Shown here: positions 2,974 through 61,575 of the stretch, piece after piece | How the letters are laid out: every line of letters starts with the position of its first letter | How positions within the stretch are numbered: position 1 is the stretch's first letter | Position numbers and translations under genes: made by a program | DNA from: Podarcis pityusensis | Taxonomy: Eukaryota | NCBI GenBank assembly: GCA_964106645.2 | Contig: OZ067047.1 | Reading direction: 5' to 3' (one strand) | DNA: 64,000 bases | Notes under the pieces: generated by a model | Seen by the model: the letters and a program-made list of their open reading frames with translations, nothing else | What the model was told of the DNA's origin: nothing | The model's database searches: none

Positions 2974-3855
2974 CACATAAGTGAAATAAATGGTTGCCAT
3001 ACTGCATAAAAAGATAATGGGTTTGATTTAACTCTGGTTGCTTTTACTTGACAGCCAAGGCAACATACCAGACTTATGTATATCAATTCTTATATCTATA
3101 TGGAGACAAGCATTGGGACAAATCTGTTGAAATATGCTGTCTTCAGAAATGCTTACACAAATCCTTTAGTTTTATTTTCACCAAGTTGCTTTTTTTTTTT
3201 TTTTTTTTGCTGCTCAGTATTATATATAATGTACAATTTAAAACCATGCAATGAAACGTCTGAACTTTTGTTGCTTCACTGAAAATTATGGACCACAGAT
3301 GTTGCTAGCGCACCAGCTTGTCCCATTACTGATAGCAGAGTTAATTGCACAACTGGAGTCATTTTTTCCCTGCATGTTATATAGATAGCAAGTTCCTAAA
3401 CCTGAATTTGAAAAATATAGACATAAGCAAAATCGGACAAGGTGTCCTTGTACCTGGAGTTATTCATTAATTGTATAATTATAACCCAAAACAGATGCTA
3501 GCCGGGGGTGGGGGGAATTTAAGGAACGCGAAGTTATCATCCATAAAGTACACGGTCATCAAGTGAGAGTGAATATTAAAGTCATATCATGCCTGTGAAA
3601 CTGAGCCTTTTTTTGGTCTGTTTAATGATGAGTATGTTTGATTGCTATTTCTTCTGAACCAATGACACAATGCGGAGAAATGCTGTCAAACTCTAGAAAC
3701 AAATGTCTTTCGTGTGTGTGCTATAGAGCAACTCATTTACATCCTGTACTGTGCCAAAATAAACATATATTAGGATTCAATGTGTGTCTTACACTGACAA
3801 TTTCACGCTGCATAGTTTAAGATTATGGTCCCTTCTGAATATATATATATGAACT

Positions 3856-5401
3856 TGGATGCAGTTCATCCAGGGCCAGATGAACTGCATCCAAGAGTAT
3901 TAAAAGAACTGGCAGATGTGATCTCAGAACCACTGGCAGTCATCTTTGAGAATTCCTGGAGATCAGGCGAAGTCCCGGCAGACTGGAGGAGGGCAAATGT
4001 TGTCCCTATTTTCAAAAAGGGGGAAAGAGAAGGCCCAAATAATTACCGCCCAGTCAGTCTGACATCAATACCAGGGAAGATTCTGGAGCAGATCATTAAG
4101 CAAAAAGTCTGTGAGCACCTAGAAAGGAATGCTGTGATCACCAATAGTCAGCATGGATTTCTGAAGAATAAGTCATGTCAGACCAACCTGATCTCGTTTT
4201 TTGACAGAATTACAAGCCTGGTAGATGAAGGGAACGCAGTGGATGTAGCCTACCTTGATTTCAGCAAGGCATTTGACAAGGTGCCCCATGATATTCTTGT
4301 AAAGAAGCTGGTAAAATGCGGTCTTGACTATGCTACCACTCAGTGGATTTGTAACTGGCTGACTGACCGAACCCAAAGGGTGCTCATCAATGGTTCCTCT
4401 TCATCCTGGAGAAGAGTGACTAGTGGGGTGCCACAGGGTTCTGTCTTGGGCCTTCAACATCTTTATCAACGACTTGGATGATGGACTCAAGGGCATCCTG
4501 ATCAAATTTGCAGATGACACCAAACTGGGAGGGGTGGCTAACACCCCAGAGGACAGGATCACACTTCAAAACGACCTTGACAGATTAGAGAACTGGGCCA
4601 AAACAAACAAGATGAATTTTAACAGGGAGAAATGTAAAGTATTGCACTTGGGCAAAAAAAATGAGAGGCACAAATACAAGATGGGTGACACCTGGCTTGA
4701 GAGCAGTACATGTGAAAAGGATCTAGGAGTCTTGGTTGACCACAAACTTGACATGAGCCAACAGTGTGACGCGGCAGCTAAAAAAGCCAATGCAATTCTG
4801 GGCTGCATCAATAGGAGTATAGCATCTAGATCAAGGGAAGCAATAGTGCCACTGTATTCTGCTCTGGTCAGACCTCACCTGGAGTACTGTGTCCAGTTCT
4901 GGGCACCACAGTTCAAGAAGGACACTGACAAACTGGAACGTGTCCAGAGGAGGGCAACCAAAATGGTCAAAGGCCTGGAAACGATGTCTTATGAGGAACG
5001 GCTAAGGGAGCTGGGCATGTTTAGCCTGGAGAAGAGGAGGTTAAGGGGTGATATGATAGCCATGTTCAAATATATAAAAGGATGTCACATAGAGGAGGGA
5101 GAAAGGTTGTTTTCTGCTGCTCCAGAGAAGCGGACACGGAGCAATGGATCCAAACTACAAGAAAGAAGATTCCACCTAAACATTAGGAAGAACTTCCTGA
5201 CAGTAAGAGCTGTTCGACAGTGGAATTTGCTGCCAAGGAGTGTGGTGGAGTCTCCTTCTTTGGAGGTCTTTAAGCAGAGGCTTGACAACCATATGTCAGG
5301 AGTGCTCTGATGGTGTTTCCTGCTTGGCAGGGGGTTGGACTCGATGGCCCTTGTGGTCTCTTCCAACTCTATGATTCTATGATTCCATTATTCTATGATT
5401 C
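3856..5401 (+). mobile_element. Young 5'-truncated CR1 LINE: ORF2 RT domain to C-terminus plus 3' UTR
   Basis: ORFs 3825-4481 and 4423-5310 carry the CR1 RT motifs GPDELHPRVLKEL, NYRPVSLTS, YLDFSKAFD, GVPQGSVLG, KFADD and RPHLEYCVQFW. One frameshift (about 8-nt deletion in GPVLFN at about 4452). Ends in (ATTCTATG)n; TSD TATGAACT at 3848-3855 / 5402-5409. Confidence 0.97.
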
Positions 5402-10331: not shown

Positions 10332-10545
10332 AAATAAAAAAATAATAAAATAAAATAAATAAATAAATAAATCCTTCCAGTAGCACCTTTAAGACCAACT
10401 AAGTTAGTTCTTGGTATGAGCTTTCGTGTGCTTGCACACGAAAGCTCATACCAAGAACTAACTTAGTTGGTCTTAAAGGTGCTACTGGAAGGATTTTTTT
10501 TATTTTGACTATGGCAGACCAACACGGCTACCTATCTGTAACTGG
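10332..10545. mobile_element. Penelope-like element terminal fragment arranged as a fold-back palindrome
   Basis: 62-bp perfect inverted arms (10369-10430 / 10435-10496) plus the 3' end GCAGACCAACACGGCTACC. 13-bp TSD TTCATTAGAATGA (10319-10331 / 10546-10558). Nearly identical to 50415-50542. Confidence 0.85.
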
Positions 10546-26937: not shown

Positions 26938-27110
26938 GCAAAAGACGAATACCAAACCCAACATGGCTGATATCCAAACGAGACACTGCTTATGTCCAGT
27001 GTCCAACAGGTCTGCTCTGAGTCGCAAAAGACGAATACCAAACCCAACATGGCTGATATCCAAACGAGACACTGCTTATGTCCAGTGATTTCAACAGGTC
27101 TGCTCTGAGT
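26938..27110. repeat. Tandem duplication, two units of about 86 bp
   Basis: GCAAAAGACGAATACC...TGCTCTGAGT at 26938-27022 and 27024-27110. Confidence 0.95.
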
Positions 27111-29662: not shown

Positions 29663-29876
29663 GTAGATCAGGGGAACGCTGTGGACATAGTGTATCTTGA
29701 TTTCAGTAAGGCTTCCATAACCTGGTTTCAAGTTACAAGAAACGAGATTCAGACTAAACATCAGGAAGAACATTTGGGCAGTAAGAGCTGCTTGACAGTG
29801 GAATGGACTCTCTTGGAAGGTGGTTGACTGGAGGTTGTTAAGCAGACGTTGGATGGCTATCTGCCATGGAAGCTTT
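29663..29876 (+). repeat. 214-bp inverted copy of the CR1 segment at 32569-32782
   Basis: About 211/214 identical to the reverse complement of 32569-32782, including the same internal-deletion junction. Confidence 0.95.
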
Positions 29877-32493: not shown

Positions 32494-33030
32494 ATCATAG
32501 AATGGTACAGTTGGAAGGGACCCTGAGTGTCATCTGATTCAACCGGATGCAATGCAGGAATCTCAGCTAAAGCTTCCATGGCAGATGGCCATCCAACCTC
32601 CGCTTAACAACCTCCAGTCAACCACCTTCCAAGAGAGTCCATTCCACTGTCAAGCAGCTCTTACTGCCCAAATGTTCTTCCTGATGTTTAGTCTGAATCT
32701 CGTTTCTTGTAACTTGAAACCAGGTTATGGAAGCCTTACTGAAATCAAGATACACTATGTCCACAGCGTTCCCCTGATCTACCAAGCTTGCAACTCTAAC
32801 AAAAAGAAAAAAGATTTGTCTGGCATGACTTGAGAAATCCATGCCGGGTCTTAGTAATCACAGCATCCTTTTTAAGTGCTCCCAGACCAACTGTTTAATT
32901 ATCTTTTCTAGGGCCTTTCCTGGTATCAATGTCAAGCTGACCAGTTGATAGTTACCTGGGTTTTCATTTCCCCCACATTTTGAAGATGGGGCAATGTTTG
33001 CCTGCAGTGACCTCACCTGTTCTCCAAGAA
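32494..33030 (-). mobile_element. Internally deleted old CR1 fragment
   Basis: NYQLVSLTLIPGKALEKIIKQ and LVDQGNAVDIVYLDFSKA fused directly to the C-terminal/3' UTR region; ends ...TTCCAACTGTACCATTCTATGATG. Confidence 0.85.
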
Positions 33031-44878: not shown

Positions 44879-45687
44879 CACTAGAGCAATGGACATGAAT
44901 GTGTGACTTACATGTGTGACTTATGCCATACATACTTTTTCAACCTGCTGAAAGAATTCACACGAAAACATTGCATCAGACTGCGAAGTCCATGCAGATA
45001 GGAATATTCTGCAAGTATTACATTAGATTCCCTGGATATTTAAGGGAGGGAGAGAGAGTTTCCTCATGTGTTACACTTTACATTTGTCCTTCCTGAATTT
45101 CATTCTGCTGCTCTCTCTCCAATTGGCACAGGTCACATAATATTTCATTTATGGTCTCTTGGAGGCATTGGGGTAGGTGTCGTCTCAATAGTGAGAAAAT
45201 GAACCTGACTGTTTCAAGGTGTTTTCACACCAGTGCCCTTTAGAGTGTTCCACCTCAGGCTGCAACCACCTGACACTATCACTTCAGTGCCAGGGATTCA
45301 TAGGCAGATAACTGTTGACATACACGCGGATACTTTTGAGGCACTTTAATGGCAACCCTCTCGCACTGCCTCAGACGTGTCGGAAGGCTATCAAGGGAGA
45401 TGCCAGCACTTTGCCTTCCTACTTTTACACAGGTTATAGATTTTCAGCACTGATGTTAACATGCCCCAATGCTTGAGGCAGACATAAAACACAAGGCCCT
45501 TGCAATTCATGATTAAGAAGATTGCAACATTTTATATGAAGGACTCTTGGGAATTGGGAAGAAAGGGAGAGAGAATGCACAGATGTGCATAGTTTGGAAA
45601 GGCCACTGGCCAACTGTCAATTGGCAGTGCAGGCTCTGGATGTCTGTGCCTCTGTTGTAAGAGTCATCCAATGGATTCTTTGACAGA

Positions 45688-46177
45688 TGTCAGGCAGCAG
45701 AGGAAGCAACTCTCCTAGCAGGTTGCCAGGAACGTATAAGACCAGGACAAGTTATTACCACTTGCTTTTTATTCAATATTTACAAAAAGAGGCTTGGCAC
45801 ACAGCCTCTTGGAATAATGGCATTGTCCCAAGTGACTCTCCACCCCCTTTTTCTCCCACTTCCTCATACGGGTGGCGCTGAGGGCCCTTTGCTTCTGAGC
45901 CCTTTGCTCTCCTACTTTCAAGGCTCGCTGGGTTCTGGGAGAGGGGGGATCTGGAATGCTTTCTAAAGACACTGTGTCCATCAGCTATTGCCCTCCTGGT
46001 GCTTCCTCTTCCTCCTCCTCCTCTCCTATTATTTCCCAGCTTTTCCCCTCATCTGCCTCTGAGCTGTGACCACCCTCAATTCCCTGTTGTAATTCTGAAT
46101 TGTCTTCTTCTTCTTTTCTGGAAGGGTCAGGCTAGGAAGGCAGTCTCCACCATACTTCCTCTGTCCAGTCCCTGACA
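45688..46177 (-). mobile_element. Solo LTR (Gypsy-like)
   Basis: TGTCAGG...CCTGACA termini and AATAAA on the minus strand. Homologous along its length to 60999-61492. TSD degenerate. Confidence 0.85.
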
Positions 46178-48431
46178 GGAGATGACATTCCAATGAGGAA
46201 AATGTAATACAGAGGCTACTAGAAAAGGAGGAGTTGTTTCAACACCCCTGTGTCATTATCTATGCTAGAAAATTACTGACAACTCAATGCATTGGCCATA
46301 GCTGAAAAGTGATAAAATGAGATGAAGCAATATCATAGCCCAACCCCAACCTTCTGTTAAAGCCCCTCTCGCTAATTACCCAGATATGTCAGGTGGCAAG
46401 TCTTCTCATTCTGAAGAAATCTGACATCAACAGATTTCTCTTCTTAATTTTTATTTTAATAAATAAGCCATAAAGCAGCTGTGAAGTTACTGATAAATGA
46501 ACTGCTAGGGAATAGGCTTACTCAAGTGAGCTAAATCCTTCTGCCCTTTCATTATAAGCAAGATAATACTGTGAACACATGTTCCGAATAACCTGAGAAC
46601 AAGTGTCTGAGAGATACGTATTTGGTCCTTGTGCCTTTGGCTAAAGAATCAGACAATGGACACACAGTTGTGCTTCCTATAGGTCATACGATGGGGAAAC
46701 AGTAGGAGAAATGAGAATCAAGTGTGTTCTAACAGAGAGAATGGTGGATTTCAAATTGAGGGCTGGCTGATGAGGTTGCACTTCTCCTTAACTTCCCAAT
46801 CTCCTTGTTGAATAAAGATGTAAAACCTGAACTATTAGGAGCTAAGCACCAGGCTAATGAAGGAGCTGGATGGTTAGAGGGGGGGGGAGTAGAGTAGTGA
46901 GATGTTTCAAATGTAAAATAAATGGAAATTCAATGCACACACACACACCCGACTGGGCACAAACTACAGCCTCATATGGGTGCTAATATATCTCACATAT
47001 ATCAATACAGGAGCAAACGGTGGGTTGTGATGTATAGCCCCACCACCAACACAGCAAATGCTCTCTAGACTCTTCCCTGACATCTGGATGTAGATTGTGA
47101 ATACCTGTAGGCAAGGGGCCTTCATATAGATATACACTTGAAGTATTCCATGGAATCTGGAACACTGATCATTTAGAGTTCCAGATCTTGTGCACATACA
47201 CCTACAGAGATTCAAGATGTACATGCATATCCAGATGGAATGTGCAACATCAGGGGTGTGGCTAATCAGTGCAGTTCCACCCCTTGCTCATAGATTATCC
47301 TTGGGGTCCTTTCCAACTCTACAATTCTATGATTCTATGATGTCCATAGGCATGAGCAGTATATGCTTAGGGCTTCTGGGTCATGTAAAAAAGACATGGA
47401 ATTGTGGGCATAATAAGAGCACAAGATGACCAGAAGGAGGGTCCTGAGCACTTATCCCTTGAAAGGTGTGCTTTTCATTTCTGCAAGATGGATCAATAAT
47501 AGCCCAAGACTGCAAACCTATGAGTAAGTCAAGATGAACTCAATGCAACTTACATCTTATTAGGCATATACTGAAGCACAGTTTGCATGGATTAGTCCAT
47601 TTAGAAGTAGGCCGCAATGTTTTCAGAAAATTATCAAAGACAAAGAGAGGGAAAGCAATGAAAGAAGAGGCACCAGTCTAGACAAGTAACATGCTTTGCA
47701 TTCCCCCCCCCCCCCAAATCAAATTTATTGTAACTATTTATAATGGCTTCCTGTTTGCAGATTACTTATTTACACAGCAAAATGACAGATTTGGAGCTTT
47801 TAATAAAACAGCATCCTCTCTCCTCTTCTTTTATAAAAGTTTTTCCGTCTGTATTTTATCGAGCTCAGTTTCACTATACATGAACAATTAATCAAGCACT
47901 CCTTTGAGTATGATGCTGTTCTCTTTAAATATCAGTAACAGAGAAGATATTGCAAGCAATGAAACCACAACATTTACCATCATTCACATCCTCCTTTCTG
48001 GTTGCTTGCCCCATATATATATTTTTGCAATGGCTGTGGAACATATAAGTAGACAAGTGAGGCTTTATGAAATCACATAGCACAGAGTGGAGATTATGGA
48101 TTAAATTGTAATTGTAGCATTTATAATCTATACACCACAGACCAGAGATCTGCTGCCAGTGCTAGGTCTCTGGCATCCTCGGAGCAACCAGGTGTAAACA
48201 CAGGCAGACCAGAAGTAATGTCATACAGCTGGGGTCAGCCACCTAGGCTGCTCCCATGTCCATTGTGGTACATAAGGGGCAGAGCATATTCTCCAGCAGA
48301 GAAGCAAGCTGTGAGGCAAAAGGCGCCAGGAGGAAAAAATTGTTTGAGTCCTTTAACCCAGTGGCTGGTCAGGATGATAGGAACACAGAGGGTTCATCCA
48401 CAGTGTCGCTTGTTCCATGTTTTCTAGGCAC

Positions 48432-48544
48432 TTTCCCAGGGAAAACCTGCTGTTTACTGCTGAATCAGAACAAACATCAATCCACAGAAAGCCCAACTGA
48501 TGTTTGCTCTGATTCAGTGGTAAACAGAGGGTTTCCCCAGGGAT
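48432..48544. mobile_element. Palindromic MITE core (family unassigned; related relic at about 9622-9715)
   Basis: Imperfect arms CTGTTTACTGCTGAATCAGAACAAACATCA / TGATGTTTGCTCTGATTCAGTGGTAAACAG. Confidence 0.6.
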
Positions 48545-49083
48545 AGCGGTGGTGCTAACAACCCAAAACCCTCTCATACCCATGCCTAAGAAAGCACAGG
48601 ACAAGGAAAAGTGTGGACAAACCAGAAGTATGTCTAAATTGGAGGGATTGTAAAGGGAAGGGTGCGCATGGATGTGAAAGCATTATAATGAGATGTTCTG
48701 CTGAACTCCCTGTTTTAGGAATAAAGGATTCACTAAGCCTCCTTTGCAGTAAATGGTAAGACTGGGGCTCTGAGTGCATTGCACAGATTTCCCAACTCCT
48801 TATCTCTGGAGGAGTCTGGCAGGCTCCCTTGCACAGATGGAGCTTTCCTCACAGTGGGTTCCCATTTATTTTCACTGTAGGGGACACTCTGCTTGCACTG
48901 CCTTTAATTGCAGAGAGCTGCCTTTTTCATTGACATTGTTATAGATTTGTGGGGTGACCCACCCCCAAACCCTAGACTTTAATAAATGGTAGGATTCTTG
49001 AGTACTGAAGGGAAACGTGTAGGCTAGTGGGGAAATACAGGTTAAGCTTCCTTTCCAAACCACCTGGGATAGAGGCATTAACA

Positions 49084-49219
49084 CAGGCATCCCCAAACTC
49101 AGCCCTCCAGATGTTTTGGGACTACAACTCCCAGCATCCCTAGCTAACAGAACCATAGGTCAGGGATGATAGGAATTGTAGTCCCAAAACATCTGGAGGG
49201 CTGAGTTTGGGGATGCCTG
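49084..49219. mobile_element. Young palindromic hAT-Charlie-like MITE
   Basis: Long TIR CAGGCATCCCCAAACTCAGCCCTCCAGATGTTTTGGGACTACAA; perfect 8-bp TSD CATTAACA (49076-49083 / 49220-49227). Confidence 0.93.
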
Positions 49220-50414
49220 CATTAACATGTCAAAAGGTGTTGATGGCCCATTTGAGAGGAATCTTGGGCCTGGGCAGACAGACGGTTGCCAGGTTAACTG
49301 GGTATGACAGGAAAAGAGTCTTTAGCAAGGTGTGCTGGGAAGAAGAAGGGAGAGAACAAACTGGGATCCATCTTGGGCAGGTTGGCTGAAGGCTGGCTGG
49401 GAGAGGTAGCTTTGACTCCAGGGCTGCTGTGGGGTACAAGCCCATCTTGAAATGACCATGCGATTGATCTAGTCTCCCTTCATGCAGACTGAAGATGTAA
49501 ATATGTGAATAAACTACATTTATTAAAACTATGGCATCCTGTACCATGTCTCAGTTCTCCAAATCAACACAGACCCTAGGGGAGTGCCTGGAACCACGTG
49601 GAATCTTCCAGCAGCTTGGCAGAGAGTGTGGGTGGCACACAACTTTTGTAACAATATCAATAGGCAAAACCACCTGATTTTAATCAGGCCAATTAATTTT
49701 TTTAAACCGTTTGCATGAGGAGGAAATGGCTTGCAGACAACCATTTCTATTGTCCTGTTTATTTGTAACAACATGAGTTCCATAGATTCAAAACATACCA
49801 AATTATGCCCTGAAACTGGGCGTAAGTACCAGAGTAGCGGTGTATAATTTATTTCTACAGAAATAACTCCTGGACTGCTTTCAAGTATACATTGTGGCAT
49901 TGATTCACAGAGGGAGGACTTGGGGAGTGGGAGTGAAATGTTGACTGGTCATGGAAAGTGGTAAAGTTAATGAAAAACTAAAGTAAATCACAAACAAAAG
50001 AACATGAGTAGGGAGTTGTTGTTTTTTGTCAAAATGCCCAATTGTGTAATAGCTTGCAAATTATAATAGAGTATTATGAAATGAATGTTGTTATTCTACA
50101 TGTAAATATAATTCTCCACCTGCACCAATTTGAGCTGGTATAACGCTTGAGAAGTCAGTAAATCAGGAAAATGACATTAAAGCTCAATTTGCATAATAAC
50201 ATGAATAAATGGCGAGCTTTTCCCCCCTGAGCCCCATACAGCTAATGTTATTTTTCAAGAGTGTAAAGTTTCTTGGACCATTAATACACTATTCATAGAA
50301 TAAGCCAATAGAGGCTGAGTCATAGATGGACTCTGGTGTATGACAGCTAAGCTTTTAACTCCCACAGCACGCTATAGCAACCATACTGAAGTTAAGCAGG
50401 CCTGGATTTAGTTA

Positions 50415-50542
50415 CAGATAGGTAGCCGTGTTGGTCTGCCATAGTCAAAATAAAAAAAACCCTTCCAGTAGCACCTTTAAGACCAACTAAGTTAGTTCTT
50501 GGTATGAGCTTTCGTGTGCAAGCACACTTCTTCAGATACACA
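50415..50542 (-). mobile_element. Penelope-like element terminal (pLTR) fragment
   Basis: Same sequence as the 10.4 kb copy; 14-bp TSD CCTGGATTTAGTTA (50401-50414 / 50543-50556). Confidence 0.85.
50502..50539 (-). ncRNA. Minimal type-I hammerhead ribozyme motif (Penelope-associated)
   Basis: Minus strand GUAU-CUGAAGA-A-GUGUG-CUUG-CACAC-GAAA-GC-UC-AUAC. Stem I GUAU/AUAC, core CUGANGA and GAAA, stem II GUGUG/CACAC, palindromic AGCU stem III. Confidence 0.8.
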
Positions 50543-51985
50543 CCTGGATTTAGTTAGTTCTTGAATGAAAAATAAGTTGAACTGACAGCAGTATCCTTTC
50601 AGTTTCTGATGGTGGGGGGCCGACACTTTTGAAAGTCACCCCCCTCACCACAGCCTCCCATGCCACCTCCCACATTAAAGAATGTGCGAGACACTTCTGA
50701 AACAGTGTGAGAGGTGGTACTTGGGACTTCAAGGGGAAGGAAGAATTGGCAAGAGGTGCCTTTTCCTCACAGTCAGCTAAATTCTTCCACCAGATGAAAA
50801 GCCTTCTGTGGGTGGATGGAAGGAGCCTGGATGCAGCCCAATCAATGGTATGGGAGAAATGTCAAAGATAAAAAAATTATTATATAAATAAATATCCCCC
50901 TAACTTTGACAACATAGATTGCTATAACAACAGGCCACTGCCCATTCATTTAACTTATCATACATGTGTTTTTGTTAATATAATAGGGCTCTTGCTCTAA
51001 AGCATGACCTTATTTTCTATAATGGTGTGATGGACTAGAAGGACAAGATTGTGTTTCTTTTACTAAATTGAGGTCCCAATTTAGTTCACTTTGGAATAGT
51101 ATCTAAAGAAATCTGAGCCAAATCGAGCATTTTACAAAATGCTGAAGGAGGCCCCAACCTTAATCTTGCCTTCCATGCACATTCGAAATTGAATCATGGT
51201 GACTCCACATGAGGTGGGCATTTTAACAGGCCCTCAAAATGGCAGTAATAGGCACTAGAATGCCTGCCTGCTTTTGAGTACTGCTAACTGAAGCATTTAG
51301 AAAGCTTTGTACGGTAATAATTATAAGACTATTCTTATAACCATCAGTCAGGAAAATCTCCGAGATAATAGGATGCAGGAAAAGAGAGAACTGTAATCAT
51401 TTTGCCTCTAGGGAGTGAAAGACCTTTATAATAACTAATTCTACATTCTTCTTGCTGAACAAGTTAAGCCTGGCAAGAATTCCCAAGGGGTGACAACTAT
51501 TGAGAATAAGACTGAATACCCATTGATAAATGTGGTGATTTTTGTCCTCTAGCCTTTGAGAAGGTATTCTGTTCCCATCAAGGCCAATGGGAAGAATTCT
51601 GCTGAGCTCAGAAGGGAGGACTTTGCTGGCACGTTGCAGCTTAAACTGTGAAAATCAGCCCCCTTTCTCATGCAAGCAGACCGTACTAAATAATCATAAT
51701 GCTCCTTCCACCTTTAACATCTGTGAATCTACATGAGAACAATAGGGGCTTTCTGCAAAGGGAGGTTATGAAATATAGATGCCTCCTTGCCTTGGAAAAG
51801 AATGGGTATTTCTCAGAGTGTTTGGCTCCCCATGAATTAATGACCCTGGAAACGAATCACGCACCAAAAGCAAGTAAACACCTGTGAGACAAATGGTTGC
51901 CCACTGTGGTTTAATTGATTACCCCGACTGCCGAATGACAAAAGAGGCAACTGGATAGTCATTAAAATTTACGAAACAATAGAAG

Positions 51986-52002
51986 AGGTCATCCGGAGGT
52001 CA
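51986..52002 (+). promoter_or_regulatory. Perfect DR5 nuclear-receptor element (candidate RARE)
   Basis: AGGTCA-TCCGG-AGGTCA. Function untested. Confidence 0.5.
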
Positions 52003-52574
52003 GAAGAATAATGTACTCTTATTACCAAACTCGCTTTTGGATTTTTCACTATATTCATTTACTGTTCAGTTTAAAAAGAGCAGGACTTTCATGAACCTGT
52101 CGCCAGTGATTTATGAAGTTCATTTTCTCTTCATATGTTTATAGATCAAACATGGAAAGAAAGTCTTGGCAATACTGAGCAAGTTTAATATTAAAAGGAG
52201 TGGAAATTTCAACTTTGCATTGTGCTAGCTTAAACAATTTGTCGGAGGCGGAGGGGACGACCACGCAAAATAATTACACTCAAGCAATTGTTTTGATCGT
52301 GGATAAATGCTCTTAAAATCAATGTGCCAATTTAACACCGTGCACTAGTTCCTGAAGAAGCATTCCATTGTGCTATTTAGTACATGGCATTTAGTGCAAG
52401 GCATTTAGTGCATGGCAAAATCAAAGGACAAAGGCAAGGGGTTGGAAAGGGAACGCCAGCAATTGTTTTGGAGGCGGGGATTCTAAACATAGACTGCGTA
52501 ATATTCTACCAGGCAAAATGAACCGACTGTTTTTTTGGCTTAAATGTAACGATTACAGGTTTGCCCCAAACTGA

Positions 52575-52618
<44 letters not shown>

Positions 52619-52660
52619 CCCACCCATCTGATGGGATGGCATTCCACAGGGTGGGCTCCC
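52575..52660 (-). mobile_element. (ATT)n microsatellite on a deleted L2 3' end
   Basis: (ATT)~14 then CCCCACCCATCTGATGGGATGGCATTCCACAGGGTGGG. Confidence 0.65.
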
Positions 52661-53944
52661 ATGTTTGCCCGCGGGGGTGGAGCAAGGCGCCCGTAGGGTG
52701 GGGCGGGGCAGGACAGGGTACGCCAGAATCCCAGTGCCCATTCCACTCCAGCACCCTGCAGGCCCGTGTTGCTTTTAACTGGGCAGATCCAAATACCCAG
52801 TCAAGGTTTGAAGGAAAATAGACTTCAGTGGAACTTTTAGGCTCCCTCATGGTCCAAATGATATAACTGGGAGTATGGCAGTTTTGGAAGCTTATTAGCT
52901 TTGAAACCAGTATGTCTTAAAGAAGGATGAACTGAAATTATTCACTGGATATACACTTACTGTATCTTCTATCAGCAAATCAGTTACAAATGGGAAATTG
53001 GAAAGGACCACCCATCTCTGTCAGTCCTGTACTTTTACTCACTATTATGCTTGGTAGTCACATAGGTACTACGAGCCATCATTTCAATGTACCCAACTTC
53101 TCTGGCCATGGATACTCATCCATGAATGAATGCCTGGGGCTTTTATCTTGTTTTTGAGTGATTCCTAACTGAGCCTAAAATCATATTTAGTGTAATGGTT
53201 TATCATAAATTTTACAAACAGAAGGAAGAACTTTAAAGAGTAAATGCTTACAGCATAGAAATAGAAAACAGAATAGGATGCATGCTTGCTGTTTATCTCT
53301 GTTTGAATTCAGTATTGACATAAAGATAGGCTTTGTGGTTAACTTGAAGAGTCAACCCCCTGGAAAAATATTGGTCTTGTTCATACAAAGATGAGGTCCC
53401 CCCCCCCCAAAAAAATATGTGTACTTTCAGGAGGTGCAACCACAAATCTTTGAAAAAATGTGTCAGAAAGAACAGAGGATCTTGCTCTCTATGAGAATGA
53501 AATACTTACATTTTAAAATAGCTATTTACCACATGGTACAACCTGTTATCTTATGAAATCAGGTGGTGTGTGGGCATGTGTGGTGCTCAACCACATGGTA
53601 AACAGATTTATTCCAGAACTTACAACTGCCTGAAAAATAAGTATAATGAAAAAGGCAATATGTAACCTTACGCCATGTTTCTGTTTATTTAACAAAATGT
53701 CTATACAAACTTGATGTTCTACATAAAGGAAGGCTTGCCTACTGGCACCTCTATAATATATGCCGTATTTTTTATTTTATTTTTGTACACAGTACCTACA
53801 AAACCACAAAGGCAAGTGAAACCTCTTTAGTTCTGCCCCCCCAAATTTAACTTTCAAGTTGCCTAACACTTGCGTGTGTACCTGAATCCTTTTTAACCCT
53901 CCCAAACAGTAAAGGTTGCTCTTGCAGGGAAACACTTGTCCATT

Positions 53945-54100
53945 CATTTTATTTCATTTTATTAATATCCCACCTGTCTTCTGCCTTGGAACCTGCAGTG
54001 GTGTATACCTGGTTCCCAGGCAGTCACCCGTCTAGGCACTGACCAGAATTAGACCTTCCAAATTTAAGGGAGATGATGGTGTCATGTGATTTCAGACAAC
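53945..54100 (-). mobile_element. 5S rRNA-derived SINE relic (5S-Sauria-like)
   Basis: Minus strand TCTGGTCAGTGCCTAGACGGGTGACTGCCTGGGAACC resembles the 5S internal control region; AT-rich tail. Confidence 0.55.
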
Positions 54101-54239
54101 ATCCTGGGCCTTTCCTTCAGAAATCTGGCAGTATTTATCCCATCCAAATGGACTACCATGACTGCAATTCTGCCACTAAATAAAAAGGCAGTTCCCCATT
54201 TTAAAAACTCAAAAGTTTAAAGGCACTGAGAATAAAAGT

Positions 54240-54342
54240 TCCTGCCAACCTAGCAGTTAGAAAGCACATCAAAGTGCAAGTAGATAAATAGGTACCACTC
54301 CAGCGGGAAGGTAATCAGCATTTCCATGCGGTGCTCTGGTTT
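54240..54342 (+). mobile_element. Sauria SINE internal fragment abutting Rex1
   Basis: CCTGCCAACCTAGCAGTT...GTGCAAGTAGATAAATAGGTACC...GCTCTGGTTT. Confidence 0.85.
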
Positions 54343-55290
54343 AAAGTCTGATTAAAGACTTTCTGATAGATCGGACACAAACAGTGAGGATTGGACATGT
54401 AACATCTAATTCCTTAAAAATCAGCACTGGCACACCACAGGGATATGTGCTAAATCCCTACCTGTATTCATTGTATACATACAATTGTGTATCATCTGAC
54501 CTGTCTACTGCAATTATTAAGTTTGCAGATGACACCACCATAATGGGTTTAATAACAGGTGGAGACGAATCAGCGTATAGAGGGGAGGTCCAAAAAAATA
54601 TCTACACGGTGCCTAGGGAACAACTTGCACCTTAATATCAGCAAGACACAGGAGATGGTGTTGGACTTTCGGAGGAAGAGAGGAGAACTAGCCCTGCTGT
54701 ACATCGGGGAGGGCTGTGTGGAGAGAGTCTCTTCCTTTAAATTCCTAGGAGTTTATCTCAGTGAAGACCTTACTTGGAAAATAAATACATCCCAGGTGGT
54801 TAAGAAAGCCCAACAGAGACTCCATCTCCTCAGAGTATTGTGGAAGAATGATGTCAATCAACACCTGATGATCATCTTCTACCGGTCCACAGTAGAAAGT
54901 GTCCTTTCATACTGCATCACAGTGTGGTACGCTGGGTTGACATCATCTGACAGGAAGTGCCTACAGAGGGTGGTGAATACAGCACAAAATATTATGGGCT
55001 GTCCCGTGAATCCGCTGGATGAAATAGCGGAAGAACGTTGCCTCAGGAGAGTAAGGAAAAGACTCAGGGATGATTCACACCCTGGCTGGCACTTTCTTCA
55101 TATCCTGCCCTCAGGCAGAAGATATAGAAGCATGATTAGTCACAACAAAGGCAACTGACTTTCGGGTTTGGTGGGTGTACGTCAGTAAACGACGGGAATT
55201 AAGACTAAGAGAGCTGAGTGGGGGGTGCTCGTGTAATCTCACTGTATACAAGTTATACAAGTGACAATAAAGTATTTCAATTTCAATTTA
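54343..55290 (+). mobile_element. Rex1/Babar-clade LINE 3' fragment (RT)
   Basis: STGTPQGYVLNPYLYSLYT, KFADDTT, LNISKTQEMVLDFRR, VKKAQQRLHLLR, FYRSTVESVLSYCITVWY and LPSGRRYRS. Frameshift in the A-run at about 54595; ends GACAATAAAG-TA(TTTCAA)n. Confidence 0.9.
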
Positions 55291-58200
55291 ACCATTGAGA
55301 AAGTAATTGCATCCAATTCTGACCCAAGATAAAAATGTTACTGCTAGTTTTAAGTAAATTGTTGGACTAGTGATTGGGCAGATGTGGAACTTAAGTTTTT
55401 CTGAAGTGAGGTTCTGATTTGGTCCAAAAGCAAAGCAAGAAGCCCTAATTCTTTCACAACCCACTGGGAAGTTCTCCTGCCCAGTCTCTATTGAAATTAA
55501 CTAGCTGCACAAGAGAATGCTGGGATAGCGTCCCTCAAACTACTCAAGTGTTTTTCATTAACATAATCTCCACACCAGAATGGCTGAGAGATGGCTTTGT
55601 TCTACTGACGTGCTTACTCGCAACACAAAATCCTCACAGCACATTTCCAAAATATTGAATGGCTTTCAGTTTATGGTCATTTCAAGGGCTTTTCCTTAAT
55701 TTATTAACTGCTCATGACCTTGAGGGTTATCTTGGCTAACCTTCTCAAGCCACTGCTGCTCATGCAGTAATTAGTTTGCCACCCTAGTGGTCTCATTTCC
55801 TTTTACTGTACTGCTAATCAGTCTGAGATCTTATGCTATTAAAATACCTAAACACTCTTTTTAATTTAGAAGGGAACTCATTGTGTCGTGGGGCTTGAGC
55901 CCCCTGCTATTTGAGAATGTGGTGAGCAATCTTCCATCTCTTGTTTATACCTTCAGAAATGCAGCCACCGCGACTCAGCCCTTCTGTCCCCTGGAAAGAA
56001 TAACCCGCATGGAAACCATATGGACAATAGTAGGAGCAAAAAAAGCAAGAAAATGCACAAAAGCTTTGTTGTCTTCTGTGTTAACCTGATGGCATTTGTA
56101 ACTAAGAGTTCTCAGCCTACAAACTCATTTACTCTGAATTAATGCCGTAAATCAAGCAATACTGGTTACTGCTCCCAAAGCATTGAGAGGAAATAACAAG
56201 TGCAGTGGCTAATCAGATTGTAATGCTTTTTTTTTTTTTTTAAGGAAGATGTAAGGGGAAACATGGGTAGATAGCTACATGATGGTGCCAGGTCTCTGAA
56301 TTATGCTCTGGATTTCTGGCACCTACTGTATTTACATCAAGAAAAATAAATAGATTTTAATTGTAGACTGCAAGCTTCCAGTCACATTTGGCAAGAGGAA
56401 GCAGTCTTCTAATTTACCATTCAGTCAAGCTTCCAACACGAAGATATTTATTACAGCCATGCCAAAGATCTGACAGAATCATTTTGGGAAAAGAGATTTT
56501 GTTTGTTTGTATTTTAAAACATCCAGTAATTCAGTTGTAAGGATCTTTTTAATTCACCCTCTAAGCTCACTTGATATTTAGGTACTGAGATAAATAAAAT
56601 TTATGACTACAGCAGAGCCAAAATCTTAAGGCTTGGGGATGAGAATCAGCCAGGTTTCCCTCCACCCCCTTTGCTTTTCTCTCCTACTTTTCAGAGACTC
56701 TTTAATCCTGAAACTACCCATATGCCCATCTGATTCTGTTTAATTACTGTGGCACAAGCCATAAAACTTCAAGGAAGTTCTGGTTCACAAAGAAAATCAA
56801 AGTCCATGAACATTTTGCCTCCTGGCGCTCAGGCTTTTCGGTTAAGGAACATCTCAGGCTTGGGACACTCCAACATTGGGCCAGTGATATAATGGTGGCC
56901 TCCTGGTGTCTCATCCAATAGGCATCATCTTGGGCCATGGCTATGCCTTTCACTCCTGTGCAGACAAAGGGCTGGGTCCTGTCCCCCCATTGGCTTTCAA
57001 AAATAACTTGGGCAGAAGCTAGAAGTAGACGAGATGGGAGAAAGCGTGTGGCTGCTGCCCAGAATTCTGTGTCTATTGTCCCTCGGTAGTCTAGTAATTT
57101 AAGATGCATGACATAGCATCACTTTACTGCATGTTTCTCCCCACGCTGCTCCATTTCATTGGTGGCTGCTTGTGGGAGCAAGTAAAACTGCTCTGAGGTA
57201 CTGTTGGGCCATGCATTTTCCTTATCAGAAAGAGACACGGGACAAATTATATCAGTCAGACACCCCATGTCACATCTACCTCTGGCCTAAGTGCAAGCCA
57301 TGGAACTCAACTTTCTTTTCACTGAGTTGGGCTTGTGGGGAAAACTCTGGAGCAAGACTCATCTGGGATAAGACTGAATGTGTACTTTGGATGACAGCTG
57401 AATTCTCCTTGGGGCTCAGATCATTAGGGCCCCTAGCGGGGCCAATGGGCATGTGGGGAGTTTGAGAAAATCCCCAAATGGCTGCTGAGTGTATGTGGCG
57501 TAACACAACATGGCTAAAAAGCAGTAAAAGGTTCTGCTTTAAAAAGCACTAAAATTGGATACAACCCCGAATGCTCACTGAGCTTGTAGTATTATTCGGG
57601 GTGGAAGGCATCCGTTTCAGCGAGTCTTACAATTATCTGTGGTTACGATAATTGCTATTGTGTTAAACAGATGTTAGCACCACTGCTGTAGCACACATAC
57701 AGCTTGTGGTGCAAGGAAGTTGGCTAGTTCTTGCCAAGGTAGCAAAGATTTGCCTGGGTTCACATTACTGAATACTTCTAAATGAGAAACAAAAGCCAAA
57801 CAAGCAGAAATAGCTTGTTAAGTTGAAGACTAGGTTAACAGTTACCCCCGGCATACAGTTTCTAATTAGAGGGCTTCTCCTGAATAAAGGTTCTATGAGA
57901 GCCACGACCTGCGGTCCGAAGTGCAACAGCTCAGACACAGGTTACCACCTAAATGAGAACGGGGTCAGAAACTGGTGAGATTTGAACCATAAAATACTAT
58001 TGCAAGCCTGCATGCCACATCGCTTAAGAAAGGAGTGCTTAGTCCTGGCTTTAGTAAAATACCTTCAATAACCAAAGGAACAAGATAAAATAAATCTAAA
58101 TCCTATTTTCCAAAGGAGGTCAATTTCATAAATATCAGTCATTTTATTTCGACATTTTCCCTGCCATATTTTCCATGGGAAGACTTGTCAAGAATGTGAA

Positions 58201-58748
58201 GCAGAAGCAGCTATGTATATAGTCTCATGGGTAATTATTATTTTTTACTTTTTTAAAGGAAAGGGCCTTTCTCAAATAGAATTTAGAGTAAAACATTTCT
58301 AAACTAGGCAGCACCTGAGACAGTATTTCTCTGGAGTAGAACATTGGAAGGGATACCAAGAATAAACCTTTCACCTCTGGTCCTCAGCTCAAATATTCTC
58401 TTGGAAGAATAAAACTTTTAGGGTTTGCTTCTAAGCATTAAAGCAATTGAAGTAACATCAACTCTGCTTTCAAAAAAGAAACTTTGTAGCATTCACATTT
58501 TTGAATTCCTCCCCACCCCTGATATTTCCAGGACAAAGCTGCATTTCTATACTAAAGTAGAACACAGCTTATTTCAGCTTTATGCATCCAACAAAGAGGT
58601 ACATGAAATGAGTTGAACTGGAGCAACATTTATTAATGAGAAGAACCTTTGATCCTCCAGATGTTGTTGAATTTCAACTCCCCTCAGCCCCAGCCAGCCC
58701 CAGCCATTTGAATTTCAACTCCTAACCCAGCCAGCCCCCTCCTTGGTA

Positions 58749-58988
58749 CAGTCAAACCTTGGTTGTCAAACATAATCCATTCTGTAAGCCCATTCGGCTT
58801 CCAAATGTTTGACAACCGACGCTCATTTTCCAATTGGCTGCAGGAGCCTCCTGCACTCAAGTGGAAGCCACGTTGGACGTTTGGCTTCTGAAAAACATTC
58901 AAAAACCGGAGCATTTACTTCTGGGTTTTCGTCATTTGGAAGCCGAAACATTCCAAAATGGAGGAGTTCGGGAGCTGAGTTTTGACTG
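58749..58988. mobile_element. Tc1/mariner (pogo/Tigger-like) MITE
   Basis: TA-CAGTCAAACC ... TTTGACTG-TA; related to 21959-22208. Confidence 0.8.
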
Positions 58989-59325
58989 TATAAGAAATCA
59001 AATTAGCAACAACAGCAACAGATCTGAAGGGGGAACGGACAGTGCAGGAATCTCCATTACTTACCTGTGGTGAGTCAAATCCTGCCCAAGACTAGTCATA
59101 TCCCCATTTCCTGGGTTCTACCTTCCAGTGAGCAGGGAGGTGTTCCTTCCCCACATCCCCTCCGAGGCCCCCACAACTCGGATTTGTTTCAAAAACATTC
59201 CATATCCAGACTAAGGGTTAGAGCTGCCGGCTTCTAGAAGCTCCCATAACTTTTGAAGGTGCCGAAGGCTGCTCACCTACCCACTTCTCTCCCAACTAAG
59301 TTTTCCCACATCTTCCTGCCTAATA

Positions 59326-59522
59326 ATGTCAGAGTTGGACCTGGGAGATCAGGGTTCAAATCTGCACTAAGTTATGAAGCTCTCTCGCTGACCTTAGGTC
59401 AGTCATTCTCTCTCAGCCTAACCTACCTCACATGGTGGCTGTCAGGATAAAAACAGGAAGGGAAAAACATGTATGCCACCTCAAGCTTTAGGAGGAAAGG
59501 TGGGGTGTAAATTCAGTAAATT
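59326..59522 (+). mobile_element. MIR/CORE-SINE
   Basis: B-box GGTTCAAATC, CORE TGACCTTAGGTCAGTCATTCTCTCTCAGCCTAACCTACCTCACA, L2-like tail. Confidence 0.75.
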
Positions 59523-60998
59523 AAAATTTTGAAAAGAAGAGCCTTAGCCAACTTGGAGCTTTATCCAATCTTGAACACTGAACTGCATTACATTAGTGTA
59601 ATTTAAGGTATACTAACACAGATAGCTATGCTGACACTACCAGTCTTTCCTTTGGCTTCCTCAATTCACATATCAGGTTCCTGCTTGTAACAAGTTTCTC
59701 TTAGGCCAAGTGAAATTCAATATCTGTGACAGGTTGCAATTTTTGTAGAACTGTCTAAGTAAATATGAAGAAAACGTGAAAACGGGTTTTGCAAAGACAA
59801 ACTGTGTTCCCGGGAAGTTAGATGACCCAGTTGACAAATGCCTGGAAGCTATGCAAAGACCACAGATGTGTAGATGACAATCCAAAATCCTGAGAAAATG
59901 AATCCCATAACCTGGCACACAACATTGTTTCCCTATTAACACAATGAGCTGCTTAAACCTCTGGAGATGAGCCGAATCCTGAGTTTCAGTGGAACCAATA
60001 TAAATAAAAGGTAGGTCATAGCACTTAGATGAGGTGAGGTTATGGAGAGCAGAAATGTGTTTCCATTCATGTCTATTTCCCTCTTTGTCACTTATTAATT
60101 TTTTGTTTTAAAATATGCAAGTCAATATTTCTTCTTCCTAAAAGCTTTTTTTTTTTTTTTTTTTTTTTGTACAAAGGAAAGAGCACTCTATCATCTGGGC
60201 TGTTAGCATGAATTCCGAAGAAAGTATTCAGGTCATTTTATTTTGTCAGTGTAAAGTAAGACAGCATTTGTTTATCTTTATGTTAAGTTTATTGAAATGC
60301 TGCCTTCCAAGAGTGAACCGCTAGACACACGAATATCAAAATATAACATGGCAATGGAAAACAAACTATTACAAATCATGTCAGCACATTTTGAAAAAGT
60401 CAGCAGTTAAATAATCACAGCAAAATATAAATAAACACATGGAAGAGTGCATAGAGACATCAAATGTTAAAGCGAGAGAAGACATTGGCAACTCTATGCT
60501 CAGTATAGGATCAGCCTGATAGTTTAGGACAGTGGCCCATCAAGGCCATCACTCTGTTCTCACAATGGCCAACCATATGCCTCTTCTGGGGTTCCCAAAA
60601 GAAGGACCTGAGTTTAAATAATGTTTAGGATCCCAGAGGTGGGACTCTCCCAGGTTGCTCATACAGCAGCCACTGAGGCTTGGGCTTTCTGCTTACCCCA
60701 CCAACACCCACTTCTGGGATGCTGAGATCATGTTCTTGTGAAATGATGCCAAGACCAAGTTCTGCAGAGTCTCCAGCACAGCACAATACCACACACAAAG
60801 GTCTAAAGCCAAAATCCTCAGTCAGTAAGCGGAGGATGGCTAACGGACAAGCAATACAGGGCACCATGCCTGTGGCTGTCAAAGGAGTTACAGAAGAAAC
60901 AAGTCCAGGAGCCCCAAAGACAAGCCATCAAGTTATCACATGAGTCTTTTCTATGCCTTTGCCCATGACAGTGTGTCCTCTGTCTACTTCTCTGCCAC

Positions 60999-61492
60999 TG
61001 TCAGGTACGGGGCAGAAGAGGAGGAATAGTAGAGACTGCTTCCCCATCCTGACCCTTCCAGGGAGGAGGAAGAGGAAGACAGTATAGATTCACAACAGGG
61101 GTTTGAGGGAGGTCGCAGCTCAGAGGCAGATGAGGTGGAAAGTTGGGGAATAATGGGAGAGCCAGAGCAGCAGCTGACTGACATATTGTCATTAGAAAGC
61201 ATTCCAGACCCTCCATCTCCCAGAACCTGGCGAGCCTTAAAAGTAGGAGAGCAAAGAGCTAGAAGACAGAGGGCACTTAGCGGCACCCATAGAGGAGATG
61301 ATGAGAATGACGAATGAGGAAGTGGGAGAGAAGGGGGATGGAGATTTACTCAGGACAAAGTCATTATCCAAGAGGCTGGGTTCTACAGCCTCTCTATGTA
61401 AAGTTTGAAATAAGAAAGGACTGTAAGAAACTTTCCCTTGTCTTTATACTTTCCTGGGCAACGAGCAGGGAGCCGCTGACAGCATCCTGACA
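60999..61492 (+). mobile_element. Solo LTR (Gypsy-like)
   Basis: TGTCAGG...CCTGACA termini; 5-bp TSD GCCAC / GCTAC; homologous to 45688-46177. Confidence 0.88.
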
Positions 61493-61575
61493 GCTACATA
61501 ACCACTTTGCAAGTCCCATGTGTAACTGCCCGACAAGGGGTTGCTAGTACAGTACCATCAACCTACACTGAAAAT

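Follow-up and report, generated by a model that had tools for sequence, protein, structure and literature searches.

We propose, at a probability of about 0.87, that the pol frame of a lizard chromovirus ran through the polypurine tract (PPT) and some 105 codons into the long terminal repeat (LTR) at the 3' end, and that the selected tail encoded there was likely kept on the integrase, likely serving as a disordered arm that docks on chromatin or nuclear factors. The proposal starts from two LTRs found in the window, that is, the whole stretch of 64,000 nucleotides of Podarcis pityusensis DNA that was analysed (Table 1). The coordinates, strands and shared ends given for them in an initial annotation were right, and the peptides it quoted are obtained when both LTRs are read from base 2.

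Table 1. LTR features in the window and positions of the encoded tail.
Feature	Position	Strand	Details
Solo LTR, subfamily A	60999..61492	+	494 bp; 7-bp terminal inverted repeat TGTCAGG...CCTGACA
Solo LTR, subfamily B, same family as 60999-61492	45688..46177	-	490 bp; TGTCAGG...CCTGACA
Target-site duplication of A LTR, 5' copy, 5 bp	60994..60998	+	4/5 match to 61493-61497
Target-site duplication of A LTR, 3' copy	61493..61497	+	pairs with 60994-60998
Target-site duplication of B LTR, 5' copy	46178..46182	-	3/5 match to 45683-45687
LTR-encoded Pol/integrase C-terminal tail (putative), A copy	61000..61317	+	105 codons + stop; decayed
Conserved block 1 of tail	61078..61155	+	low between-subfamily pN; motif census
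Conserved block 2 of tail	61186..61281	+	LSLES, Pro-rich SPR(T/S), basic helix
Poly(A) signal position, A LTR	61409..61414	+	AATAAG here; ~90 nt behind the stop
Same reading frame, B copy	45877..46176	-	100 codons to ...QRALS; two internal stops
AATAAA poly(A) signal, B LTR	45768..45773	-	sequence

We assign both repeats to the solo LTRs of an old Ty3/Gypsy chromovirus of the Sushi/Amn type (V-clade-like) in this lizard genome. The A LTR has about 2,500 candidate copies (2,493 at first look), the best 40 of which scored 86-90% identity, and the B LTR has 2,833 candidates, the best 40 scoring 81-87%; the top matches are spread over at least 16 large contigs. The LTR termini fit the Sushi att motifs TGTYANR/CNTNACA given in Table 3 of PMC3601003. 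Where both ends could be called, target-site duplications (TSDs) matching at 4/5 positions or better flank 17/25 A, 12/21 B and 14/18 C copies, and AATAAA stands at the poly(A) signal position in 7/30 A, 26/30 B and 16/20 E copies. Directly upstream of the PPT, window-type copies carry a chromodomain behind an SH3/GPY-F module at the integrase C-terminus (SH3_Tf2-1 and Chromo by Pfam on stop-free relatives), with all three aromatic-cage residues present (Y/W/Y). Gag and the order PR-RT-RH-INT are present in sister lineages, namely in the intact elements L236 and L237 and, by tblastn, in the C-like L093. In a tree of the integrase ends of our own loci, A, B and C join L077 and L079 in one group (support 85), and a young lineage stands separate (support 100). 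A 10-11-nt complement between the leader and LTR nt 307 is found in 3/3 clean young elements and also in L098 and L242, against 2/90 solo flanks used as control. The nearest named public proteins to a related integrase end include frog and fish Gypsy integrases (38-44%) and one amphisbaenian model (57%).

The case for a protein-coding tail began with the 31-codon SLES...ALS block, for which the recount returned the 9 synonymous and 3 non-synonymous codon differences first noted between the two LTRs. Eleven of its 16 base differences lie at third positions (P ~2e-5), and at least 9 synonymous differences alone give P 0.003, both values assuming random placement and being uncorrected for the choice of this block, which is the best window of the A/B pair. 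When the entire frame is counted, the raw pair has 15 synonymous against 30 non-synonymous codons (12/33 and 7/36 in the other frames), a weak signal explained by neutral decay after insertion. The in-frame indels had been described as 3 and 18 nt; the aligned part in fact contains 3, 3 and 24 nt, 18 nt being the net figure. Immediately after 'ALS', the minus-strand copy falls short of the plus-strand copy by 23 nt and of 11 other B-type copies by 14-17 nt, with the result that it alone leaves the frame ahead of the shared stop. The internal stops, two of which lie near the start of the A-copy tail, had been read as decay, and their distribution is what decay would lead one to expect: out of 29 further copies from the respective subfamily, only 1, 4, 2 and 0 share them, and the stop at LTR nt 317 is found in 23/29.

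It is between subfamilies that the constraint becomes legible. With subfamilies defined as top-30 BLAST sets and not as clades, and in contrasts that share branches, are not independent and vary in absolute value with the ts/tv weight, the net dN/dS of the tail frame is 0.39 (0.17-0.89) for A-B, 0.23 for A-C (upper bound undefined through saturation), 0.26 (0.12-0.60) for B-C, 0.41 (0.22-0.71) for A-E and 0.44 (0.25-0.73) for B-E. The same contrasts give 1.4-2.9 in the other two sense frames, and the ratio thus falls below 1 in the tail frame alone, as a coding reading would have it. Within subfamily A, dN/dS is 1.00 (0.76-1.35), with mismatches even across codon positions. The purifying selection originally claimed for the LTR frame is consequently upheld between subfamilies (0.23-0.44) but not on solo copies, and it was evidently the element lineage on which selection acted. 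Model-free counts of subfamily-level differences at the three codon positions are 4/5/15 for A-B, 28/25/51 for A-C, 21/14/32 for A-E and 22/18/33 for B-E, and they are flat behind the stop in all four contrasts. Indels that shift the frame would have spoken against coding; modal length differences between subfamilies are multiples of three in 7/7 cases at nt 40-318 and in 0/8 at nt 330-440. Among length variants common to at least four copies, 2/7 shift the frame, and 21/50 single-copy variants are in frame. Ahead of nt 314 the tail frame holds no stop common to half of any group, the two other frames holding 13 and 7 of them, and the terminal stop is present in 24/27 A, 27/28 B and 20/28 C copies.

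The frame is joined to that of the integrase. The chromodomain-end motif and the LTR start were both called in 14/30 loci, 10 of these 14 being in frame, and among copies with the window's LTR type the path from integrase chromodomain through the PPT to LTR base 2 is in frame in 6/7. The four off-frame junctions comprise one that is off by one base (L061), two that are duplicates of one insertion, in which the chromodomain end and the tail peptide still share a frame (L070 and L071), and one that carries a different LTR type (L082). The search for a full-length A- or B-type element found none: in 17 ten-kb regions around the broken junction copies all internal parts were broken or interrupted, a gag/leader search returned only duplicates of one C-like insertion, and among the 21 hits of an LTR-end pattern search there was neither a common leader or gag nor a 5' LTR-leader junction. 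The expectation that pol enters the 3' LTR in the predicted frame is therefore borne out from broken copies in A and B, and continuity with a whole pol comes only from the sister lineages, including the C-like L093, in which gag, pol and tail follow in order.

One of these is the young lineage, for which 8 regions were fetched. Three are clean intact elements (L236-L238), L242 shows in-frame entry from a broken pol, and L239, L240, L241 and L243 were excluded from the count, another repeat or an offset start having been chosen. The intact elements have LTR pairs 97-99% alike, perfect 5-bp TSDs and one open frame of 1,265-1,361 codons, which ends at LTR nt 331, 110 codons into the 3' LTR; Pfam reads L236 as PR-RT-RH-INT-SH3-Chromo. 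Among young subfamilies the last 45 LTR codons show dN/dS of 0.09-0.18, and the first 55-65 are near neutral (0.6-1.5). A TATA-like TTTATG sits within the conserved codons. Four RNA runs on one young element gave 19-44 reads each, too few for starts, ends or full-length RNA; nearly all reads lie on the LTR and the PPT-proximal part, and most continue into unrelated sequence.

The layout of the tail first described, acidic, then Pro/Ser, then basic, is kept across subfamilies, and the structure prediction then suggested has now been run: AlphaFold gives residues 1-73 no structure and predicts one confident basic helix at 74-97. In most copies block 1 reads Leu-x-Gln-(Trp/Gly/Arg)-Phe, a Gly/Ser/acidic linker, then Ser-Trp-Glu-x-Leu/Met, with a linker of 13 aa in A and B and 10 in C (Phe to Trp: 13 aa in 15/30 A and 12/30 B, 10 aa in 22/30 C); no helix was predicted here by AlphaFold for the free peptide. 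A Pro-[ST]P-basic module is shared by A, B, C, E, D (15/20 copies) and the young lineage. Searches of Pfam, PDB and Atlas gave no meaningful match and none accounting for the tail, a protein search gave 1 hit among 1,042 candidates, and 1.84 billion representatives yielded 9 hits, mostly short unnamed ORFs and in no case attached to Pol. In the young lineage the aromatic cage of the chromodomain is lost. The lineage also carries, as a sequence pattern, two FxGF motifs of the LEDGF-binding type. At least two acidic+FxGF motifs occur in 27/30 young loci, with linkers of 8 or 9 aa; an alignment of the L084 motif to IWS1 (PDB 6emr) has E 5.5, and no PDB chain matched a profile built on the FxGF spacer of the young lineage. 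FxGF occurs in 0/30 A, 0/30 B, 0/30 C and 1/20 E copies of the window's family.

A translated tail might merely have been tolerated as run-on, its frame kept open, for example to hold a stop near the poly(A) site, and its composition benign but free of specific binding motifs. The near-neutral N-terminal part of the young LTR tail, the wholly different tails of different lineages, and the fish and frog relatives, which on their protein sequences appear to extend only 5-25 residues beyond the GGG-x-V motif, are all consistent with this. We nonetheless consider it unlikely, since constraint sits in residue-specific blocks (at nt 182-241, pN 0.01-0.13 against pS 0.13-0.63 in most contrasts), dN/dS is 0.09-0.18 in the last 45 young codons, and the S/T-P and basic-helix arrangement recurs across lineages. 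Constraint on the DNA itself, through a promoter or purine-rich triplet repeats, or the choice of the best window, could produce a codon pattern as a by-product: the block first noticed was such a window, the signal over the full pair is weak, triplet slippage is favoured by GAG/GAA runs, 21/50 single-copy length variants being in frame, and the TATA-like box of the young lineage lies inside conserved codons. Against this stand the third-position excess in four subfamily contrasts, confined to the part ahead of the stop, the absence of shared stops from the tail frame alone and the in-frame chromodomain junction, which together refute it as the sole cause and leave it very improbable.

HIV nef and MMTV sag are separate retroviral accessory genes whose coding overlaps U3, and the second origin initially offered for the frame was a gene of this kind, which would be expressed from its own start or a spliced RNA. 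The overlap with U3 is alike, but the lizard frame is the pol end of a Ty3/Gypsy element: it opens on Val at LTR base 2, lacks a separate start, carries on from the chromodomain in frame in 6/7 window-type junctions and forms part of a single uninterrupted pol frame in intact sister elements. The accessory gene is thereby largely refuted and we hold it highly unlikely, the other option, Pol/integrase running through the PPT into the LTR, being the one that stands. We give even less credence to host selection on the solo LTRs themselves as exapted peptides. Two public Podarcis gene models (P0007, P0014) do contain C-type tail pieces in frame, and 7 A copies with a called start keep the frame open for 104-107 codons, but the neutral pattern within A and the internal stops of both window copies argue against it.

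The element was also compared with known chromoviruses. The V-clade elements (Sushi-ichi, Amn-ichi/ni/san) share the Ty3/Gypsy domain order and the SH3 and chromodomain at the integrase end, according to the consulted portions of PMC2774666, PMC6317226 and PMC4131045, in which an LTR-encoded tail is undescribed; they also share LTR ends that fit the Sushi att motifs, and the leader complement of the young sister elements may be of the self-priming type. They differ in that fish and frog relatives stop no more than ~25 residues beyond the presumed PPT motif, whereas the lizard frame, with its selected motifs, enters the LTR for 84-110 codons. Precedents for LTR-encoded integrase tails are reported for plant CRM and Galadriel chromoviruses (PMC3059260, PMC3605345, in the parts available). 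In CRM group A, the CR motif (CHDCR; PMC3059260, PMC3605345, PMC6317226, likewise in part) stands in place of a chromodomain; the lizard chromodomain lies upstream of the PPT with the LTR part additional, and the copies are dispersed over many chromosomes. Closer are the beet Galadriel elements Bingo1-4 and Bingo7, in which, according to the accessible part of PMC3605345, the chromodomain is upstream of the PPT and gag-pol extends into the flanking LTR; they belong to a plant clade with a type II chromodomain, and that part does not analyse how long the extension is, how it is selected or which motifs it has. In the literature searched, no vertebrate account of an LTR-encoded integrase tail was found.

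We return to an integrase whose C-terminal tail would be encoded by the 5' two-thirds of the LTR, translated and kept on the mature enzyme, and which would dock chromatin or nuclear factors through a disordered arm. During replication the RNA's 3' end supplies U3 to both new LTRs, and coding constraint on the 3' LTR is thus stamped on every LTR; recombination between LTRs leaves this imprint in solo copies, which decay neutrally thereafter. Selection kept the tail as protein during spread, likely because it aided the integrase in reaching or holding chromatin. That the role lay in targeting or nuclear/chromatin docking via short motifs, the acidic-aromatic block and the S/T-P with basic helix, is a reading towards which we lean slightly, bearing in mind that short-motif matches are common in acidic disordered regions. 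Among such matches, the tail may also be read as containing a LIR-like WEEL, a PIP-like LxxWF, a W-acidic motif, a cyclin RxL, a D-box, acidic-aromatic anchors of the histone-chaperone kind or a likeness to plant CR. TND-interacting motifs (TIM/IBM), which bind LEDGF/HRP2 and other TFIIS-N domains, are described in the available parts of PMC9987994 and 10.1101/624023 as a helix ending in Phe, an acidic Gly/Ser linker of 8-16 residues and an aromatic anchor. The young lineage has canonical FxGF pairs, and block 1 of the window's tail, a candidate motif, resembles TIMs in spacing at the level of sequence but has W-E-x-L/M where TIMs have FxGF. More speculatively, the post-chromodomain tail, lying partly inside the LTR, may be an exchangeable chromatin-tethering arm: in the old family, U3 would have added an acidic-aromatic block of TIM-like character and a basic helix regulated by phosphorylation to an intact chromodomain of the methyl-lysine type, and the young lineage, its cage lost, would use tandem host-like FxGF motifs to be carried by LEDGF/HRP2 to transcribed chromatin, and so would have arrived at the lentiviral tether along another path.

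The full-length parent of the window's LTR family is all but gone, yet thousands of dispersed solo LTRs keep a coding record of the integrase tail, so that solo LTRs by themselves suffice for reading selection on the element. Protein-coding sequence in the young elements doubles as U3, as TATA-like box and as presumed transcription start. An arrangement known from plant chromoviruses would thus extend, as a selected LTR-encoded tail of 100 codons, to a vertebrate lineage, in which the defined short motifs of the tail may bear on the site choice of vertebrate chromoviruses and the tandem FxGF motifs of the sister lineage suggest a candidate link to LEDGF/HRP2.

The pol frame of the Sushi/Amn-type Ty3/Gypsy chromovirus to which both window LTRs belong (the old lineage) reads through into the LTR and has been under protein-level constraint. 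Both LTRs had been placed correctly in the initial annotation, as the location of their ends and target duplications confirmed, and its peptides were reproduced by translation from LTR base 2, the frame whose product of about 105 codons, the tail, stops at LTR nt 317. Junction copies, found by a pattern of PPT plus LTR start and then by a search with the internal sequence recovered, lead from an SH3 module and chromodomain through a purine tract coding G-G-D to V-R-D at LTR base 2. The junction is in frame in 10 of the 14 loci with both the chromodomain-end motif and the LTR start called (30 loci examined), and in 6/7 loci whose LTR matches that of the window. The four off-frame junctions comprise one 1-base shift, one element of another LTR type and two duplicates of a single insertion, in which the tail peptide is nevertheless in frame with the chromodomain end. 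It is the integrase/chromodomain frame that enters the 3' LTR in most of these junction copies. Internal, gag/leader and LTR-end pattern searches of the genome found no full-length element of subfamily A or B; a C-like element (L093) carries gag, then pol, then the tail.

When the integrase ends of 28 loci are placed in a tree, A, B and C fall into one group that also takes in L077 and L079 (support 85), and a young lineage of sister chromoviruses stands apart (support 100). Three young elements (L236-L238), with LTR pairs 97-99% alike and perfect TSDs, possess a single open frame of 1,265-1,361 codons ending at LTR nt 331, 110 codons into the 3' LTR; the Pfam order in L236 is PR, RT, RNase H, integrase, SH3, Chromo. 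The suggestion that Pol/integrase runs through the PPT into the LTR is thus borne out by the in-frame junctions and by these open elements. The leader of L236-L238, L098 and L242 contains a 10-11-nt complement to LTR nt 307 (280 in L098, 214 in L242), compared with 2/90 solo flanks in the control, and the LTR site sits 30 nt past TTTATG in L236-L238 and L098. This complement suggests self-priming, as described for the Tf1/Sushi group (PMC6317226). The U3/R boundary of the young elements would then fall just ahead of the stop, and from the complement position their pol frame appears to cross U3 completely and to end some 8 codons into R.

Selection was evaluated in subfamilies A, B and C (30 copies apiece) and E (20 copies), with codons registered on the window A copy, as net divergence (between-group minus mean within-group pairwise divergence, no consensus used) with intervals bootstrapped over codons. 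Net dN/dS in the base-2 frame is 0.39 (0.17-0.89) for A-B, 0.23 for A-C (upper bound undefined), 0.26 (0.12-0.60) for B-C, 0.41 (0.22-0.71) for A-E and 0.44 (0.25-0.73) for B-E; the groups are BLAST sets, the contrasts share branches and the values shift with ts/tv weight. The two other sense frames give 1.4-2.9, and the antisense frame with the same third positions 0.5-0.6, which we read as a shadow of the sense frame. Model-free counts of subfamily-level differences at codon positions 1/2/3 ahead of the stop are 4/5/15 (A-B), 21/14/32 (A-E), 28/25/51 (A-C) and 22/18/33 (B-E), and behind the stop differences are spread evenly. Modal inter-subfamily length differences are triplets in 7/7 cases within nt 40-318 and in 0/8 within nt 330-440; of the length variants common to at least four copies, 2/7 are frame-shifting. 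Majority stops before nt 314 number none in this frame, and 13 and 7 in the other two. That the signal is a DNA-level artefact is considered highly improbable. The purifying selection claimed for the solo LTRs holds between subfamilies (0.23-0.44) but not for the solo copies. Within subfamilies, dN/dS is 1.00 in A, 0.80 in B and 0.68 in C. Since constraint between subfamilies coexists with a value of 1.00 within A, selection acted during element replication, in which both LTRs receive U3 from the RNA 3' end, and the solo copies left by recombination decay neutrally; host exaptation is given hardly any weight.

The window pair carries less of this signal. A recount of the 31-codon SLES...ALS block returned the 9 synonymous and 3 non-synonymous differences initially reported, with third positions taking 11/16 base changes (P ~2e-5, uncorrected for block choice), but this block is the most favourable segment, and the whole frame has 15 synonymous vs 30 non-synonymous codon differences. 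The indels, initially given as 3 and 18 nt, are of 3, 3 and 24 nt; they are indeed triplets, but a private deletion behind 'ALS' throws the minus-strand copy out of frame. The four internal stops are each common to 0-4/29 sibling copies, and the terminal stop to 23/29.

The tail begins with an acidic E-E-W-W and a Pro-rich spacer, followed by block 1 (L-x-Q-(W/G/R)-F, a Gly/Ser/acidic linker of 10-13 residues, S-W-E-x-L/M) and block 2 (L-E-S-I/V, Pro-rich S-P-R-T/S, basic helix), the latter also present in 15/20 copies of family D. AlphaFold, run as the initial annotation had proposed, gives residues 1-73 no predicted structure and a confident helix at 74-97. The young tail, predicted to be disordered after the chromodomain, ends in a comparable Pro-[ST]P-basic stretch. 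Taking as a model the CR motif that plant CRM elements encode in their LTRs, we propose that the tail would be translated as a continuation of pol and retained on the integrase as a disordered arm, whose short motifs would dock chromatin or aid nuclear entry; this role is given a probability of about 0.55. The main rival for this functional step, a run-on free of motifs, is judged unlikely; dN/dS in the young tail is near neutral over the first 55-65 codons and 0.09-0.18 over the last 45. A separate gene in the manner of nef or sag, the other option initially raised, is very improbable, as the frame is continuous with the integrase in junction copies and young elements.

Searches of Pfam, PDB and Atlas with the tail gave no match accounting for it, and a profile search returned 9 relatives, chiefly short unnamed ORFs plus two Podarcis gene models. 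These models (P0007, Podarcis lilfordi endophilin-A2 X2; P0014, Podarcis muralis SPARC) contain in-frame C-type LTR tail pieces, which could reflect either faulty annotation or exonisation. The acidic EEWW-type motif lies ahead of the PPT in L105, L096 and L097 and just within the LTR in families A-E, a possible sign that the LTR boundary has moved or that a segment has been duplicated.

The aromatic cage Y/W/Y is kept by the old lineage, whereas the young lineage is without its first and third residues. Between chromodomain and PPT, the young lineage has two motifs of helix-Phe, an 8-9-residue acidic linker and FxGF (L166-L195, L236-L238, L098, L084; for example G000:C14:51674000-51683900 in the source genome). 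At least two such motifs occur in 27/30 young loci, 0/14 old-lineage loci and 1/20 public relatives, the last itself of the young lineage. The motifs fit the sequence pattern of the TND-interacting motif, described in PMC9987994 and 10.1101/624023 as essential to bind LEDGF and HRP2; block 1 of the window family is similarly spaced, yet W-E-x-L/M replaces FxGF. The single motif of L084 aligned to IWS1 in the LEDGF-IWS1 structure PDB 6emr with a weak score (E 5.5), and literature searches found no paper on an FxGF-type motif in a retrotransposon integrase. It can tentatively be surmised, as a possibility we do not favour, that the tail might serve as an exchangeable tether to chromatin and, in the young lineage, involve LEDGF mimicry.

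In the 1.5 Gb genome searched, each window LTR had 2,493-2,833 first-look candidates, the best 40 of which were scored; the top-scoring copies are solo LTRs, judged by TSDs. Where both ends were called, at least 4/5 TSD positions match in 17/25 copies of A, 12/21 of B and 14/18 of C. Divergence within subfamilies is 11-18%, which corresponds to roughly 0.06-0.10 substitutions per site accumulated after insertion. The LTR ends match the Sushi att motifs of Table 3 in PMC3601003, and AATAAA lies about 90 nt downstream of the stop in A/B. One D-type LTR insertion was copied along with its flanks (L209, L210 and L212-L215 on contig C19, L207 on C20), as was a C-like element (L069-L072). Contig C19 (38 Mb) is strongly enriched in internal chromovirus sequence, with a large share of 150 scored SH3_Tf2-1 matches, a pattern that a W chromosome would show. 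Short interspersed repeats are abundant in the remainder of the window.

Table. Features located in the window
Feature	Coordinates	Strand	Remarks
LTR, subfamily A	60999-61492	+	TGTCAGG...CCTGACA ends, decayed 5-bp target duplication
LTR, subfamily B	45688-46177	-	TGTCAGG...CCTGACA ends, decayed 5-bp target duplication
Open stretches	3816-5307; 54556-55155		200-296 codons; presumably LINE reverse-transcriptase fragments, by motifs
Palindrome	10365-10500		near-perfect, 67-bp arms
Tandem duplication	26938-27110		86 bp
Inverted pair	29663-29876 / 32569-32782		214 bp, 99% identical, 2.7 kb apart

In the CRM group A elements of plants and in the Galadriel elements of beet, gag-pol is described as continuing into the 3' LTR (PMC3059260, PMC3605345), as pol does in the lizard elements; fish and frog V-clade proteins seemingly extend only a few residues beyond the GGG-x-V motif, as inferred from protein. 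Literature searches brought up no description of a vertebrate chromovirus whose LTR encodes a long integrase tail under selection, the papers compared including PMC4131045 and PMC2774666; subscription journals or Repbase reports may note such overlaps. The LTR-encoded Pol tail is a real feature, and the initial annotation is supported in this form: LTR read-through is known from plant chromoviruses, and a long selected tail is apparently new for those of vertebrates.
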